DNA from: Candidatus Wukongarchaeum yapensis
GTDB lineage: Archaea > Asgardarchaeota > Wukongarchaeia > Wukongarchaeales > Wukongarchaeaceae
Direction: 5' to 3'
DNA length: 8,615 nucleotides
Assembly (NCBI GenBank): GCA_016840425.1
Contig: JAEOSI010000083.1
Coordinates: 1 to 8,615 of the forward strand
Shown: positions 1 to 8,131 of the stretch, piece by piece
Layout of the letters: every line of letters starts with the position of its first letter
Numbering within the stretch: position 1 is the stretch's first letter
Notes under the pieces: generated by a model
Databases searched by the model: none
The model's input: the letters and a program-made list of their open reading frames with translations, nothing else
Told to the model about the DNA's origin: nothing
Position numbers and translations under genes: made by a program

Positions 1-1155
1 TTGTGCCCATAAAAGTATGCTGAAAGTTATGCTTGCACCAAAACGAGCGAAGGATTTAGCACTGATCCGTTTTTTCTTCATTTTTTCGCCTTCAAGAAGA
101 TCTTTGTTAACCATAGCTTGGATGGCGTCTTTAGCCATTTCTTCAGACATTCCCGTATCTTGGCTAACTTTTTCAGGAGTAATTTCTGCTTCAGGATTTT
201 CCTTTTGTCTTTCTATAAGCTTAGAAATAGCTTCTCTGAACTTTTTCATCTTTAGGCTTATAACGGTAGCGAGGCCTACACCGCAAGCAATACAGAATTT
301 TGCATCATAGGGAACTTCTATCCAACATTCTCCACAACGGTTTGTAATAATATGTCTTGAGGCTCCTGCTATTTTTCGGGCGGAAATATCTGTTCCTTTT
401 GCAATGGCTTGAACAAAAGTGTTATCCATCCCGAAGGGTTGACTACCTGAGAGGGATGAAGCACTTGAAGCACCTGCCCCACTTGTAACAAGACCAACTG
501 CGCCAACCGCAGCAATTACCGTGGCAACAGCGGCAATAGCTCCCACAACCGTTGTTAAAGGATTCCCTTCTAAATTAATATAGAACGTTTTCGGACCCCA
601 TAAAGTTATTTCAGCAGGGGCTCTTGAACTAACGCTCTCTTCCATGAATAGCGATGAACTGAGTTCTTCGCCTATAAGCTCAACTTTTAACTTGTAAACG
701 CCTACAGTGAGATATTCGAGATTTATATCAAGATCTGCTTCTTCCAAGTTTATGGTATCATTATCATGAATGTTGTTATGTTCTACCGGATCTACTACTA
801 TTCCAGGTACATCTGCTTCATATGAAGGAAGGTCTGCGCCAGCATAGGTAACTGTTATCTTGATATAGTTTGCTCTTACCGCGGGGCCCTCTTTATAGGT
901 TATGTTATACTCAACGAAGATGTCTTCGCTTGGGTCTATGTCGATGGCGTTTCCTGCAGAACCTGCTTTAAAGATGTCCATTTTTTCTCCGTCTCCCTGC
1001 CATATGTAGATGTTGATGTCCCACTCGCCAACGCCTCTAGGCGTTATTTGTTGGTCTTTAACACCGTTACCGTTTTGAGAAGCACTTATTGTCAAGAACG
1101 CTAGGAAAAGCAAGAATATTAATAACTTATATTTTGGTCGGTTATTTTTTCCCAT
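1..1155 (-). CDS. Partial (3'-truncated) receptor-like membrane protein: signal peptide, beta-rich ectodomain, TM helix, CxxC-x10-CxxC zinc ribbon, probable HTH/winged helix
   Basis: Translated by hand: ATG at 1155 opens a 385-codon frame with no stop before base 1, which is why the track lacks it. MGKNNRPKYKLLIFLLFLAFLTISA (signal peptide-like); NIT and NDT sequons; TM TVVGAIAAVATVIAAVGAVGLV (~487-555); CGECWIEVPYDAKFCIACG (283-336); EITPEKVSQDTGMSEEMAKDAIQAMVNKDLLEG (~88-189). Confidence 0.85.
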   Translation of the reverse strand, partial: MGKNNRPKYKLLIFLLFLAFLTISASQNGNGVKDQQITPRGVGEWDINIYIWQGDGEKMDIFKAGSAGNAIDIDPSEDIFVEYNITYKEGPAVRANYIKITVTYAGADLPSYEADVPGIVVDPVEHNNIHDNDTINLEEADLDINLEYLTVGVYKLKVELIGEELSSSLFMEESVSSRAPAEITLWGPKTFYINLEGNPLTTVVGAIAAVATVIAAVGAVGLVTSGAGASSASSLSGSQPFGMDNTFVQAIAKGTDISARKIAGASRHIITNRCGECWIEVPYDAKFCIACGVGLATVISLKMKKFREAISKLIERQKENPEAEITPEKVSQDTGMSEEMAKDAIQAMVNKDLLEGEKMKKKRISAKSFARFGASITFSILLWAQ

Positions 1156-1310
1156 ATTAAACACGGCCAAAAAATGATTATTTATGATTATACAAAATTT
1201 ATCATAAAGTTATTGGATAAAATATTTTATTAATTTTTGTTAGAATGGTAAGTTTTTAAAGTTGAATCAAGATAAGTTTAATGAGCGGTTTTTGAAGGTT
1301 TTGATTCTTT
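1156..1310. promoter_or_regulatory. Divergent promoter region
   Basis: Very AT-rich gap between divergently oriented genes, containing TATA-like stretches such as AAGTTTTTAAA (~1250-1260). Exact elements cannot be assigned. Confidence 0.4.
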
Positions 1311-2813: not shown

Positions 2814-3377
2814 TTAGAGATAAGTGATTATTAAGGTTATTAGGAGTAGAGTCCCGATCAAGTCTCCTATAGTGGTTACCGTGGGGATCGTGAAGTTGTC
2901 AGGGTCAAGACCGCGGGAATAAGTCATTTTTGCTGCAAAAAGCCCTATAAACATCATAAGAATTGTCGTGACTATTCCTGAAAAAGCCACAATTAAAATG
3001 AAGTTTGAAAAAGTGACATTTATTTCAAAAAAGATTGAAGCCACAGCTATTCCAATAAATGCAAGGAATAAGAATCCTGTGAAAGCTACAAGCACCATGC
3101 TTATCATATTCAAAAAGAGGACTTTGTAAGGCTTAAAATCGTCATCGATTTCACCCACATAGAGGCTAGAGGTTATCCTAGAAGTAAAAACACTCGCTAA
3201 ACTACCAGACATATTTATGAAAGCTGGAAGGATCAGAAGAATAATGGAGTATTTTTCGATTATGTTTCCCGCAAAACCTTCTAAAAAATTACCCGTAACC
3301 ATTGAAAATATGATTATGAAGGTAAGAAAAGGCAAGCTCTCATTAATAATTGCCTGAGCATCATAATATCTTTCCAT
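2814..3377 (-). CDS. mgtE: MgtE/SLC41 integral-membrane Mg2+ transporter domain (second half of split pair)
   Basis: About five hydrophobic segments; PAFINMSGSLASVFTSRITS and DPDNFTIPTVTTIGD match the MgtE Px6GN and PDx4Px6D motifs; AGGAGG ribosome-binding site upstream; no CBS domains. Confidence 0.9.
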   Translation of the reverse strand: MERYYDAQAIINESLPFLTFIIIFSMVTGNFLEGFAGNIIEKYSIILLILPAFINMSGSLASVFTSRITSSLYVGEIDDDFKPYKVLFLNMISMVLVAFTGFLFLAFIGIAVASIFFEINVTFSNFILIVAFSGIVTTILMMFIGLFAAKMTYSRGLDPDNFTIPTVTTIGDLIGTLLLITLIITYL

Positions 3378-3392
3378 CTTCTTAACCTCCTA

Positions 3393-3989
3393 TTAAGGCA
3401 ACCATCCAGAGATGGACAATGTAAACTTGGCTACTATTAGTAAGTATATTATTGTTAGAATGTCCCCCACAACAGATAGAGCAGGTATTGTGACATTATC
3501 GGGATCAAGACCAAGATGGGAGGAGTATGTCGCAATGAAAACCGTAAACCCAACTTGGCTCACCCCAGCCAAAGTTGAAGTTAAAACAGCTATCAAAATA
3601 AATTCTAGTAAACTCATATGTTTAAAGCCGAGCAAAATACTGCTTATAAACGCTAAAACTCCAAGAGAAAAACTCATTAGGAGACCCAAAGATACCGATG
3701 CTTTAACATTCTCTCTCACGTCTTCATTAAACTTGTCTTCCCAGCTTACAATACCCAAATGGATAGCAGAACCTAAACGCTGACCCAAAGCTCCGCTAAT
3801 ATTCCCCCTAGCTTCCATCAACCCTGGAACGATTATGAACAAACCTGGAAGGAGTTCATAAAAATCTTCTATACCTATTAAAAACACTCCTACCCATATC
3901 TCAGCCACAATAGTTACAAGTATTATGGGGGCAGTCTCCTTATAAGTCGTTAACACCAAATCTTTCTCAGACAAGAAAAAAACCCCCAC
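3393..3989 (-). CDS. mgtE: MgtE/SLC41 integral-membrane Mg2+ transporter domain (first half of split pair)
   Basis: PGLMEARGNISGALGQRLGS and DPDNVTIPALSVVGD motifs; about five TM segments. The start could be GTG 3989 or TTG 3974. Confidence 0.9.
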   Translation of the reverse strand: MGVFFLSEKDLVLTTYKETAPIILVTIVAEIWVGVFLIGIEDFYELLPGLFIIVPGLMEARGNISGALGQRLGSAIHLGIVSWEDKFNEDVRENVKASVSLGLLMSFSLGVLAFISSILLGFKHMSLLEFILIAVLTSTLAGVSQVGFTVFIATYSSHLGLDPDNVTIPALSVVGDILTIIYLLIVAKFTLSISGWLP

Positions 3990-4567: not shown

Positions 4568-4681
4568 TTTAGCTTGTTCCACGAAATCTGGGAAAAGTAC
4601 AGCTAATGGGTGTTTCTCACATCATCGATTTAGCTTGTTCCACGAAATCTGGGAAAAGTACAGCTAATGGGTGTTTCTCAC
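4568..4681. repeat. Exact 53 bp direct repeat (4568-4620 and 4629-4681) separated by 8 bp
   Basis: tttagcttgttccacgaaatctgggaaaagtacagctaatgggtgtttctcac occurs twice with spacer atcatcga; it overlaps the 3' end of the mtrH-like gene. Confidence 0.98.
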
Positions 4682-5600
4682 TGGGGGGTAGTGTTTTTTC
4701 GGTTCCATATCTCAAGGTTGCTAGGATAGAGTCAGCAACTGCACATGTAGGAAAGAGCCACGCATTATTTTCAATTGCGCCATAGAGTAAGAAGTCGCAA
4801 TAGTATATCGCGGTTATAGCATGGCCTGCTGAGTCTATTCCTTCAAAAACAGTTTTGCCCCAGATCTTCTTTACTGATCTCTTTTTCTCAAGGTTTTCAG
4901 GGTCAGGTAATCTCCAGGCGTCACTGCCGTTAGATGGAGCGCAGCCAGCCGGCCAGCCGTATTTTTCTTTAACTAAATGGTTAGCGAGCATTGAATAGGC
5001 TATTAAAGGCACGGTTAAAACAGAAGTATCTATTAACAAGTTTGTAAACCCTGCGTCTTGGGCGGCTTTTATTAATTTTTGATCAAGTAGTGTGATACGA
5101 CCTTGTGGGCTTGGATCTTCTGTGTTGAAAGCGACCAGTAATGCATTAGATAGTTTTAGTTCTTTAAGCGTGTCTATTTCAGACTGCAAATCTTCACTCC
5201 AAGGAGCTATACTGTTATAAATCACTCTGCCTTTTAACCCAGCTTCTACTGCGTACTTTGCTCCTCCCAGTTTGGGGGGTACTTTCCAAGCATCGATCAT
5301 TATTGGCCAGTCGCAATGGGAAGCAACAAAATCGATGTATTTTTCCATCTCTTCTGGGAAATTAGCGACAACATCAATACAGGCAGAAATCCCGTACCTG
5401 TCGCACATCTCGTCATGGTGAGCAAGAAGTTCTTCAGCGCGTGCTTTATCAAAAGTACCTTCCTTTCTTTTCCCTACAATAGAGTGACCGCTGTAAAACA
5501 TAGTACCGATCATAAATATTGGATTTTCTCCGGGTTTTCCTCCAACTTTTAACCCGCCTATATCTAAAACTTTTTGAGGCGTTTTAATTTCTATACACAT
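4617..5600 (-). CDS. mtrH: MtrH-family methyltetrahydromethanopterin/methylcorrinoid methyltransferase (stand-alone, MtrH/MtgA-like)
   Basis: IGGLKVGGKPGENPIFMIGTMFYSGH N-terminus, IMID, IYNSI, LLIDT, GCAPSN and DFLLYGAIE motifs of the MtrH pterin-binding barrel. ATG 5600 preferred over GTG 5612 because GAGGTGA lies 8 nt upstream. Confidence 0.9.
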   Translation of the reverse strand: MCIEIKTPQKVLDIGGLKVGGKPGENPIFMIGTMFYSGHSIVGKRKEGTFDKARAEELLAHHDEMCDRYGISACIDVVANFPEEMEKYIDFVASHCDWPIMIDAWKVPPKLGGAKYAVEAGLKGRVIYNSIAPWSEDLQSEIDTLKELKLSNALLVAFNTEDPSPQGRITLLDQKLIKAAQDAGFTNLLIDTSVLTVPLIAYSMLANHLVKEKYGWPAGCAPSNGSDAWRLPDPENLEKKRSVKKIWGKTVFEGIDSAGHAITAIYYCDFLLYGAIENNAWLFPTCAVADSILATLRYGTEKTLPPSEKHPLAVLFPDFVEQAKSMM

Positions 5601-5799
5601 TTGAGGGTTCACCTCTCGTTAAGAAAGTTTTTATGAAGAATAGTAAACAAGGTTTTTTTTAACTTTCCTTGTTTCTCATTTTTGAGAAGTATACGCCCTT
5701 ATTAAATCTTATCTACTATGAGGAACGAAATATTCAAGTTAAATGAATTAGTAAGTAAAGCTGGGAAGTTTTTGGTTTGTGAAAAAGGAGGATTTTTTG
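5601..5799. promoter_or_regulatory. Divergent promoter region between mtrH-like gene and the dynactin-like pair
   Basis: AT-rich gap between divergent starts, with a ribosome-binding motif on each side (GAGGTGA on -, GGAGGA on +). TATA/BRE positions are uncertain. Confidence 0.4.
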
Positions 5800-6330
5800 A
5801 TGATAATTGAGAACCGAGGGAAAAAGCCTACTGTTTCTAAAACAGCCTTTGTTGATGAAGAAGCGAAAGTTATAGGGAATGTGATCATTGGTGATCATAG
5901 TTATATTGCGCCTGGGGCTGTGATTCGTGGCGACCTTGCCCGGGTGGTTTTAGAAAACTATACCGCAGTGCAAGATGGCACCTTACTATATCCTGCAGAA
6001 CATTTTATGGACGGTTTGATGGAGCATAAAGAGATTTTGATTGGTTCTCATGTTATTATAGGGAAATATTGCATTATTCAAGCCACCTATGTTGGTGATG
6101 CTGTTTTTATAGGATCATCAAGCGTTCTCGACAGGGAATGCCAGATTAGTGATGGAACCGTTGTTGCCGCAGGTACTGTTGTTCCTCCTTGGATGATTGT
6201 TCCTCCCCGCGTCGTTGTTGGCGGTCAACCTGCAAGAGAATATAGACGCTTATCGCCAGGAGACGTGGAAAAACAGAGGGAAAATGCTGAAACTTATTCA
6301 AAATTTGTCGAAAAAGTTTTGAAAAGATGA
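5800..6330 (+). CDS. Left-handed beta-helix protein, gamma-CA-like but lacking the Zn histidines; dynactin p25 (DCTN5)-like
   Basis: Hexapeptide repeats; IRGDLARV, IGSHVII, VVPPWMIVPP and GGQPA motifs; Tyr, Lys and Gln occupy the three gamma-CA His positions. GGAGGA (5787-5792) supports ATG 5800. The fold call is secure; the p25 assignment is less so. Confidence 0.75.
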   Translation: MIIENRGKKPTVSKTAFVDEEAKVIGNVIIGDHSYIAPGAVIRGDLARVVLENYTAVQDGTLLYPAEHFMDGLMEHKEILIGSHVIIGKYCIIQATYVGDAVFIGSSSVLDRECQISDGTVVAAGTVVPPWMIVPPRVVVGGQPAREYRRLSPGDVEKQRENAETYSKFVEKVLKR

Positions 6331-6364
6331 AAAAATTTATTGTTTTTTGGATGGAGCGATTCTA

Positions 6365-7519
6365 ATGCCTTCTGAATATTTATGCAAGGTTTGTGGAAGG
6401 TTTTTTGAGGAGTTTTACGATTACTACTGCTCAGCATGCCAGCATATTATATGTGAGAAATGCACCAACAGTCAGCCTTGGACATGGCCTTGCGTTAAGT
6501 GTGGTTGGGCGGCTAAAACTAGAGCTGAAGCGATAAATAACGATTATGCATGCCCCAACTGTTATGTTTGCCCTTATTGTAAGGCGCCTGTAGACATAGT
6601 ATCTGAGAAAACGTTTGAAGGAGAGCCAAAGTTTGTTTTTAAGTGCGGTTATTGTCTTTGGAATTCAGGCATTGAGACTATAGATTCGAAATGGCATATT
6701 GAAGCTTTATCTGAAGAATGGTTAAGGAAAAAAGCAGAATCAGTAGATTTGCCAAGATTAAGTTTAAGAGAGGTGCCGACATTTCTTTGCTCTCTTTGCT
6801 ATTCAACCCTTGTCTCACCTAAGGGAAGTACTGAAAATTTAATGGCAAAGATTTTTCCCCGCGTAACTTTAAGGCTCTATCATGCTTTAATAATGGGTGT
6901 TGAGGAAGAGGTAGAGATAACTGTTAAAAATACACGTCCAAAAAACGTCAATCTGCGCTTTGATTGGAGAACTGAGGGCATACCTGTAAAAATAGCAAGC
7001 CATACACGTTCCCATGATTTCGATTTTTCGGGTTTTGAAAAAGAAAAAAAACTTAAATTGATTTTAAAACCTGAAGAATATGGAAGTTTTTACATAATAG
7101 GGGAAGTATGGTTTTCTTTTGAAGAATTATCCTTAGGTCAAGCAACTACACATATCAGGCTTGGTCCCATATACGTCGTCCCAAGAATTACTGTTACAAA
7201 AGAGTTACCAGGCTTTATAGAGACTGGAAAGGAGACCATTATGAAGGTGAGAATTACCAATGAAAGTTCAAAAGACGTAACCCGTGTTATCATTGAAGAA
7301 GGAACTTTACCCGAAGATATGCGGGTTTTAGGGGATGATTTCTTCTCAATACCAAGACTGGCCCCGAATGAGACTAAAGAACATTCTTATAAAGTAGTTT
7401 TTGAAAAACCAGGACGATACAAAATCCCCCCATCAAAAATCCGTTTAAAAATCCCCATAATAGATCCTAATCGCTTGATAGAAATAAGAAGTAACTCCCT
7501 AGAACGCTTATTGACATAA
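6365..7519 (+). CDS. Dynactin p62 (DCTN4)-like multi-zinc-finger protein with beta-sandwich and an extra C-terminal Ig-like domain
   Basis: 16 Cys in 8 CxxC pairs with p62 spacing (CxxC-x4-CxxC-x9-CxxC...AEA...CxNCxxCPxC...CGYCxWxS...CxxCxxxLxxP...PxVx...TxxN...LGP). GGAG at 6353-6356 supports ATG 6365. Confidence 0.85.
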   Translation: MPSEYLCKVCGRFFEEFYDYYCSACQHIICEKCTNSQPWTWPCVKCGWAAKTRAEAINNDYACPNCYVCPYCKAPVDIVSEKTFEGEPKFVFKCGYCLWNSGIETIDSKWHIEALSEEWLRKKAESVDLPRLSLREVPTFLCSLCYSTLVSPKGSTENLMAKIFPRVTLRLYHALIMGVEEEVEITVKNTRPKNVNLRFDWRTEGIPVKIASHTRSHDFDFSGFEKEKKLKLILKPEEYGSFYIIGEVWFSFEELSLGQATTHIRLGPIYVVPRITVTKELPGFIETGKETIMKVRITNESSKDVTRVIIEEGTLPEDMRVLGDDFFSIPRLAPNETKEHSYKVVFEKPGRYKIPPSKIRLKIPIIDPNRLIEIRSNSLERLLT

Positions 7520-7672: not shown

Positions 7673-8131
7673 ATGCCAATTATACGTAAAGCAACCTTAG
7701 AAGATATTGATGAGCTGGTTAAACTTAGAATCGAGTTAATACGTGAGATAAGTGAAGTTGACGAGAATTATATGTCAAAATTAACTGATGCAATCAGAGA
7801 GTATTTTACCGCTAAAATGCCAGAGAACGAGTTCCTAGGCTGGGTTGCCGAGGATGAAGGCAAGATTATCGCAAGCTCCGGCTTGTTGTTCCACGAAAAA
7901 CCTCCTATTCACGGAAATCTGACAGGCAGAGAAGCTTATATTATGAACATGTACACGCTTCCCGAGTGGCGGAACAAGGGAATAGCAACGAAATTATTAA
8001 AAGAAATTATCAAATTTATTAAGGAAACAAACGTGCGACGCATTCGCCTCCATGCTACCGAGGCTGGTAAGAAGGTCTATGAAAAGATGGGGTTTGTTTT
8101 GGTCTCATCAGAAATGATATTAGATTGCTAA
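7673..8131 (+). CDS. GNAT-family N-acetyltransferase
   Basis: IRKATLED N-terminus, AYIMNMYTLPEWRNKGIATKLL acetyl-CoA motif A, LHATEAGKKVYEKMGF; AAGGAG upstream. Confidence 0.95.
   Translation: MPIIRKATLEDIDELVKLRIELIREISEVDENYMSKLTDAIREYFTAKMPENEFLGWVAEDEGKIIASSGLLFHEKPPIHGNLTGREAYIMNMYTLPEWRNKGIATKLLKEIIKFIKETNVRRIRLHATEAGKKVYEKMGFVLVSSEMILDC

Follow-up and report, generated by a model that had tools for sequence, protein, structure and literature searches.

The window analysed here, the whole 8,615-nucleotide stretch of archaeal DNA, carries a pair of adjacent forward-strand genes whose products resemble a gamma-carbonic anhydrase (gamma-CA) and the dynactin subunit p62, respectively (Table 1). 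The open reading frame of the first gene comprises 176 codons, from an ATG at 5800 to a TGA at 6328-6330, and its product is referred to here as P0001. It is not certain that the pair is co-transcribed, as the run of six T residues in the spacer between the two genes is a possible archaeal termination signal. The remainder of the window encodes an MtrH-family methyltransferase (4617-5612, reverse strand), two half-size MgtE-domain membrane proteins side by side (2814-3989, reverse strand), a double-zinc-ribbon membrane protein extending past the window edge (1-1170, reverse strand), a GNAT acetyltransferase (7673-8131, forward strand) and two ORFs without a clear family (1311-2045 and 2107-2736). 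No paa or cai genes were found around P0001 in the window. This DNA occurs in metagenomes of marine sediment, marsh and mangrove.

Table 1. Features of the beta-helix/p62-like gene pair (positions in the window)
Feature	Position	Strand	Basis or remark
Shine-Dalgarno-like AAGGAGG, 8 nt 5' of the P0001 ATG	5785..5791	+	read from sequence
P0001 gene, gamma-CA-family left-handed beta-helix, 176 aa	5800..6330	+	ORF and translation
IRGDLARV motif (R43, D45, L46)	5923..5946	+	RGD common to gamma-CAs and DCTN5
QD motif of P0001	5971..5976	+	sequence
Tyr64 at first Zn-ligand His column	5989..5991	+	alignments; nearly invariant within clade
P65-I81 segment, 17 residues, beginning with invariant Pro65	5992..6042	+	alignments
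Lys89 at second Zn-ligand His column	6064..6066	+	alignments
Gln94-Ala95 at third Zn-ligand His and next Gly	6079..6084	+	alignments
VVPPWMIVPPRVVVGGQP, final beta-helix turns of P0001	6178..6231	+	resembles DCTN5; gamma-CAs less closely
C-terminal alpha-helix, gamma-CA type, residues 153-175	6256..6324	+	AF2; aligns with 1V3W and 6SC4 helix
Spacer from beta-helix gene to p62-like gene, 34 nt; T6 run, GGAG 8 nt before ATG 6365	6331..6364	+	sequence
Dynactin-p62-like protein gene, 384 aa, conserved partner gene	6365..7519	+	phmmer, hhalign, AF2/Foldseek

A first-pass annotation of this DNA had described P0001 as a catalytically dead gamma-CA-like protein that looks intermediate toward the dynactin subunits p25 (DCTN5) and p27 (DCTN6). 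The AF2 model of P0001 (pLDDT 84.8) consists of a beta-helix and a C-terminal helix, the latter modelled with low confidence (pLDDT 50-59). Pfam analysis returned Hexapep matches and a match to DCTN5 (PF21711; DCTN5 is, for example, chain V/W of 5ADX, 6ZNL and 7Z8F). This match scores 57.1 bits, above the gathering cut-off of 40, and spans positions 33-151 of the 182 in the model, so it is not full-length and the N-terminal DCTN5 segment is absent. P0001 is the sole PF21711 match in its 92%-complete genome and, as the only small gamma-CA-type protein encoded there, is no redundant paralogue accompanying an active enzyme; the other hexapeptide proteins of this genome are larger transferases. 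A second small beta-helix (p27-like) gene was not found in the 92%-complete genome, and a 241-aa protein on contig C182 that was considered as a p27-like candidate was rejected as a generic acetyltransferase of the NeuD/PglB type.

Alignment of P0001 to the Pyrococcus structure 1V3W and 120 homologues placed Y64, K89 and Q94 at the three Zn-ligand columns (equivalent to Cam His81, His117 and His122), exactly where the first-pass annotation had read the loss of the three histidines. An HHH triad is present in 104 of the 120 retrieved homologues, and all 11 sequences of the YKQ type belong to the P0001 clade, whose members come from three Asgard families and without exception (11/11) read Y/A-K/R-Q in these columns, with A and R occurring once each. 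Across the 11 orthologues, which share 38-89% identity, there is little or no variation at Y64, K89, Q94, P65 and E67 (Q94 being invariant in the clade), and comparison of P0001 with a same-genus orthologue gave a dN/dS of 0.13. Conservation of the replacement residues across three families, together with this ratio, marks P0001 as a maintained rather than a decaying gene. Restoration of a metal site from other residues is unlikely, given that only H76 of its three other histidines (H68, H76 and H84) is conserved in the clade. P0001 scores below threshold against NCBIfam models for gamma-CA (NF050158, 90.9 bits versus a cut-off of 250), PaaY (TIGR02287, 84.7 versus 319.6) and CaiE (NF010150, 70.3 versus 305). 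Judged by these sequence features, the protein is predicted to have neither a catalytic zinc nor carbonic anhydrase activity, and the enzyme-to-scaffold transition that the first-pass annotation envisaged would fit both the lost triad and the purifying selection on the residues that replaced it.

A word-indexed protein search returned three close relatives (87-97% identity) followed by ordinary gamma-CAs at no more than 38%, and genome searches recovered orthologues scoring 142-178 bits against P0001, compared with at most 101 bits for ordinary Asgard gamma-CAs. These orthologues are found in three families of Asgard archaea (Promethearchaeota), namely f1 (the genus of P0001), f28 and f29, the last of which includes a closed 1.42-Mb genome (CP091871, assembly GCA_001940665.2) that we take to be that of Odinarchaeum yellowstonii LCB_4. 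A scan of genome contigs for related loci yielded one more Asgard locus, the rest being bacterial gamma-CAs, and no haloarchaeal 6SC4-type protein. Wherever upstream sequence is present, the beta-helix gene lies directly 5' of the p62-like gene on the same strand, with 12-45 nt between them. The flanks beyond the pair vary: MtrH in this window, Fae-Hps (plus Mch) in f28 and Roadblock in Odinarchaeum, where four Roadblock/LC7-family genes lie immediately 5' of the pair (CP091871, L004:1611-3380). Roadblock genes were considered as part of the module and rejected, as they are absent beside the pair in this window and in f28. Eukaryotic contamination was likewise rejected, because the pair occurs in a closed archaeal genome and among archaeal genes (MtrH, MgtE). 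None of the papers in the library searched reports an archaeal p25 or p62, or the Asgard gene pair.

Full-length orthologues of the p62-like protein (370-385 aa) are encoded in all genomes of these families (2/2 in f1, 3/3 in f28 and 4/4 in f29) and in these only among 400 genomes of the phylum. The protein itself has a sub-threshold match to Pfam Dynactin_p62. When 1.84 billion proteins were searched exhaustively with phmmer, the small family of the protein itself came first, followed by weaker matches in the N-terminal part (E-values to 2e-6). When ten further phmmer matches were scanned with Pfam, seven eukaryotic and three from the protein's own family, all seven of the weaker eukaryotic matches proved to be Dynactin_p62 proteins. 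In keeping with this, hhalign matched the p62-like protein to eukaryotic p62 with a probability of 99% (E = 5e-18) over 97 columns, limited to the N-terminal zinc-ribbon region. The best Foldseek match in the PDB for its AF2 model (pLDDT 83.4) is human dynactin p62 (9B7J chain K), other high-ranking matches being 7Z8F_Y, 8PR4_Y and 6ZNL_Y. Distant p62-like matches were seen in other Asgard families (L016, L018, L019 and L022 in f30; L017-L036 in f21-f23). In ORFs of 458-520 aa one half, C-terminal or N-terminal, is matched, whereas those of about 800 aa are matched in the N-terminal zinc-ribbon part alone; all are without an adjoining beta-helix gene.

Comparison with solved structures showed that P0001 is most similar to archaeal gamma-CAs, scoring 96.6 bits against Pyrococcus 1V3W and 94.7 bits against Halobacterium 6SC4, followed by mammalian DCTN5 (59 bits) and DCTN6 (28 bits). 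A profile of the P0001 clade searched against the PDB gave 131 bits for 6SC4, 86 for DCTN5 and 51 for DCTN6. DCTN5 scored 53 bits with an equally deep profile of canonical gamma-CAs, and a DCTN5 profile reached at most 74 bits with gamma-CAs, with DCTN6 absent from its top 60. As P0001 still has greater raw similarity to archaeal gamma-CAs than it has to DCTN5, "intermediate" is a fair label for this archaeal variant. Foldseek analysis of the P0001 model ranked 6SC4, 9QEV and 1V3W best and DCTN5 40th, and the ESM-Atlas language-model features of P0001 pointed to gamma-CA clusters only; both were discarded as discriminators, as they do not separate p25 from gamma-CAs for this fold. Among fetched sequences, PF21711 scores were 21-28 bits for canonical gamma-CAs, 45-66 bits for the P0001 clade and 136-178 bits for true DCTN5, in which the match spans positions ~10-180. 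The 40-bit cut-off is no membership test on its own, given that active H-H-H gamma-CAs with a long loop reach 44 bits and that the cut-off is also exceeded in one of 14 control genomes.

The motifs singled out by the first-pass annotation (IRGDLARV, QD, Pro65 and VVPPWMIVPP..GGQP) are all present in P0001, and of the DCTN5 motifs that it drew on for comparison, IIRGDLANV and RPP are seen in a fetched sequence, Ptychodera DCTN5. This protein is 31% identical to P0001 in an alignment of 119 residues without gaps, and a DCTN5 of protist type (P0006) shares 38% identity with P0001 over 143 residues. Leu46 of IRGDLARV is found in 100% of DCTN5 sequences and 8% of gamma-CAs in the alignment, and QA, as at positions 94-95, is common to many DCTN5 proteins. 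At the former ligand columns, DCTN5 has R in the first, Q/K/N/E in the second and Q/S/N in the third, together with the 17-residue Pro-initiated segment. Around IGSH.IIGK.CIIQA, P0001 is closely matched by a DCTN5 subgroup with R-K-Q in these columns, whose assignment to eukaryotes rests on an RNA polymerase I subunit encoded on the contig of one of its members. In total, seven consensus residues of the clade are common to DCTN5 and rare in gamma-CAs (V40, L46, Y54, P65, G72, C91 and A95), three of which lie outside the triad/loop region, while one residue common to DCTN5 and gamma-CAs is missing from the clade.

The P65-I81 segment matches its DCTN5 counterpart in length and exceeds that of canonical gamma-CAs by 7-8 residues, such that 17 residues separate the first His column from Gly82 in P0001 versus 9-10 in most gamma-CAs. 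The first-pass annotation had taken this long loop as a likeness to DCTN5; its presence and length bear this out, but it is not specific to p25. A loop of the same length occurs in the active 6SC4 and in P0019 and P0028, all of which retain the histidines, so the loop is not diagnostic.

To investigate the evolutionary relationships of these proteins, a tree of 106 sequences was constructed with IQ-TREE (LG+C20+F+G4 PMSF) from 11 clade members, 25 diverse DCTN5 sequences, 59 H-H-H gamma-CAs (five of them loop-bearing), five other Asgard H-H-H gamma-CAs, five Asgard H-T-H forms and one Asgard H-K-Q form (L043, f31); DCTN6 and 6SC4-type haloarchaeal gamma-CAs are missing from this set. Deep branching within ordinary gamma-CA or PaaY clades, which the first-pass annotation had named as the outcome that would speak against it, was not seen. 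Instead, the clade and DCTN5 formed a split with support of 99/88 (UFBoot/SH-aLRT) in the full alignment, which lacks the DCTN6 and 6SC4-type rows. Support was 99/92 when residues 62-95 (triad and loop) were removed and 99/94 when DCTN5 was cut to six short-branch members. In the full alignment, the split that additionally takes in the H-K-Q form received 99/95, and the one that takes in both H-K-Q and H-T-H forms 99/94. With the clade removed, DCTN5 joined the other degenerate Asgard forms (SH-aLRT 91).

DCTN5 itself is monophyletic (100/100), with the archaeal clade outside, and its stem branch is long (1.7-2.4), so long-branch attraction among degenerate sequences is possible. An AU test did not reject the best of the trees in which DCTN5 falls outside the Asgard degenerate forms (delta lnL 10.8, p = 0.34). 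Kinship with DCTN5 as proposed at first pass is backed by the split and by the adjoining p62 homologue, but with a position of DCTN5 just outside the Asgard group still compatible with the data. We therefore regard the Asgard clade as nearest to p25 among the prokaryotic relatives sampled, as its sister or near-sister; exact sisterhood is no more than probable.

Two further groups of Asgard beta-helices appear in the tree. A stand-alone form (L043:1414-1965, forward strand; genome G310, f31) has H-K-Q in the ligand columns and a 19-residue loop, diverges immediately below the group formed by the Y-K-Q clade and DCTN5, and could represent an earlier stage of metal-site loss; its neighbours are a coiled-coil gene on the 5' side and NIF3 on the 3' side, with no p62-like gene. 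A large Asgard clade (L049-L066, f33; for example L056:1432-1959) has the second Zn-ligand His alone replaced (H-T-H), carries the motif IRGDQASV and is placed between ordinary gamma-CAs and the degenerate forms.

We consider it probable that P0001 is a gamma-CA-derived, zinc-less and non-enzymatic structural subunit, the nearest prokaryotic kin of p25 in our sampling, and that the p62-like protein is its most likely partner. A non-catalytic partnership is suggested by the maintenance of the homologous pair in three families under purifying selection. A competing account, which we regard as unlikely, holds that P0001 is an ordinary gamma-CA-like paralogue that has degenerated and taken on a different role, regulatory or otherwise non-catalytic, that its grouping with DCTN5 is an artefact of convergent loss and long branches, and that its neighbour has no more than a zinc-ribbon module in common with p62. 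Gamma-CA is indeed what overall similarity, the fold ranking and the embedding favour, and this account can also draw on the AU result, on the confinement of the hhalign match between the neighbour and p62 to 97 N-terminal columns, and on the ladder from HTH through HKQ and YKQ to DCTN5, which tracks rising degeneracy in the way that attraction can yield. However, the grouping with DCTN5 persists both without the triad/loop columns and with DCTN5 subsampled, derived residues common with DCTN5 are found outside the metal site, and the whole-length model of the neighbour matches p62 best in the PDB. Moreover, the two adjacent genes are, independently, closest to subunits of one and the same eukaryotic subcomplex.

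It appears improbable that P0001 is still an enzyme, whether with a rebuilt metal site or with a metal-independent thioesterase or acyl-transfer activity as in PaaY-like hexapeptide proteins. The RGD and QD motifs are kept in its genus, His68, His76 and His84 lie near the former Zn site and purifying selection is strong, all of which an enzyme would explain. Against this, H76 is the one conserved histidine of the three, QD becomes ED or EE in other clade members, DCTN5, a known non-enzyme, likewise keeps RGD, and the gamma-CA, PaaY and CaiE scores of P0001 (91/250, 85/320 and 70/305) are far under the NCBIfam cut-offs. Acquisition of the gene pair by Asgard archaea from a eukaryote via horizontal transfer, for which it could be said that the nearest named relatives of both genes are eukaryotic, is barely credible: DCTN5 is monophyletic to the exclusion of the archaeal clade, the archaeal proteins retain gamma-CA-type N and C termini and have neither the N-terminal extension of DCTN5 nor its insert after RGDLA, other Asgard forms (H-K-Q and H-T-H) branch below the clade, and the pair occurs in three families, including a closed genome.

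Cryo-EM structures of dynactin (5ADX and 6ZNL) show p62 wrapped around the pointed end of the Arp1 filament, where p25 and p27, two metal-less beta-helices, are docked as a cargo-targeting module. By analogy with this pointed end, the zinc-ribbon and beta-sandwich domains of the p62-like protein would serve to bind a filament of the actin family or some other target. The beta-helix protein would attach to the p62-like protein and provide an adaptor or recognition surface, with the conserved Lys89, Gln94 and Tyr64 occupying the former metal pocket. Physical binding of P0001 to the p62-like protein, like any link to actin, is thus something that we infer from dynactin. A role at a filament end is conceivable, because the genomes that carry the pair encode actin and, in the genus of P0001, two further actin-family paralogues. 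These paralogues, found besides canonical actin (445 bits), are two long ORFs (582 and 753 aa) that lie at G000:C97:541-1704 and G000:C20:3187-4386 (both reverse strand) and likewise on contigs C7 and C20 of genome G399. In both, the segment matching Pfam Actin 69-408 precedes that matching 5-69, as if the actin fold were circularly permuted.

Dynein and dynactin are regarded as eukaryotic inventions, and the Asgard pair suggests that part of the dynein-cargo machinery predates eukaryotes. The first-pass annotation had gone further and raised the possibility of an ancestor that preceded the duplication into p25 and p27. We advance this only tentatively, and with more doubt than confidence, as a putative state in which P0001 and the p62-like protein would make up a primordial pointed-end module capping or decorating Asgard actin-family filaments. 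If true, the cargo-targeting end of dynactin would be older than both dynein and eukaryotes. An Asgard pair related to two contacting pointed-end subunits would add a module to the eukaryotic signature set, and would provide a datable enzyme-to-scaffold transition, in which gamma-CA gave way to H-T-H and H-K-Q forms, then to the Y-K-Q type and finally to p25. Two small archaeal proteins that are easy to express would also make the origin of dynactin directly testable.

Comparison with known systems places P0001 between two of them. Like DCTN5/p25, it is a gamma-CA-derived left-handed beta-helix without the His triad, with a 17-residue Pro-initiated segment and IRGDL, GK/GQ and QA motifs; the two align free of gaps over about 120-143 residues at 31-38% identity, and both are paired with p62, genetically in the case of P0001 and physically in that of p25. 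Unlike DCTN5, P0001 has no N-terminal extension and no insert after RGDLA. Both of its termini are still of the gamma-CA type, QD is retained in its genus, and it is archaeal and operon-like in gene arrangement. By sequence and by fold (97-131 bits, Foldseek rank 1), P0001 is matched best by CamH-type gamma-CAs (1V3W and 6SC4), which share its size, N terminus, RGD and QD motifs and C-terminal helix. Halobacterium 6SC4 also has a loop of the same length, which begins with His-Pro. P0001 differs from these enzymes in that all Zn ligands are replaced and that it forms a separate clade with a p62-like gene.

The gamma-CA fold is also used as a structural subunit, with ligands partly lost, in the CAL subunits of complex I in plant and protist mitochondria and in the CcmM domain of carboxysomes. 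These are homologous to P0001 at 50-85 bits but belong to other complexes and lineages, stay within the ordinary range of gamma-CA similarity and have no p62-like link. DCTN6/p27 (PDB 3TV0) belongs to the same fold family and scores 51 bits with the clade profile, better than with the DCTN5 profile, but is much more distant from P0001 than DCTN5 is. The resemblance to PaaY, CaiE and YrdA noted at first pass holds for general family, size and both termini, yet P0001 is far under the PaaY and CaiE equivalog cut-offs and lacks a paa/cai context, and YrdA keeps the His triad that P0001 has lost. P0001 is therefore filed neither under gamma-CA, as its metal ligands are replaced, nor under PF21711, as its match is not full-length: it looks most like a CamH-type gamma-CA and, by analogy, would work most like p25.
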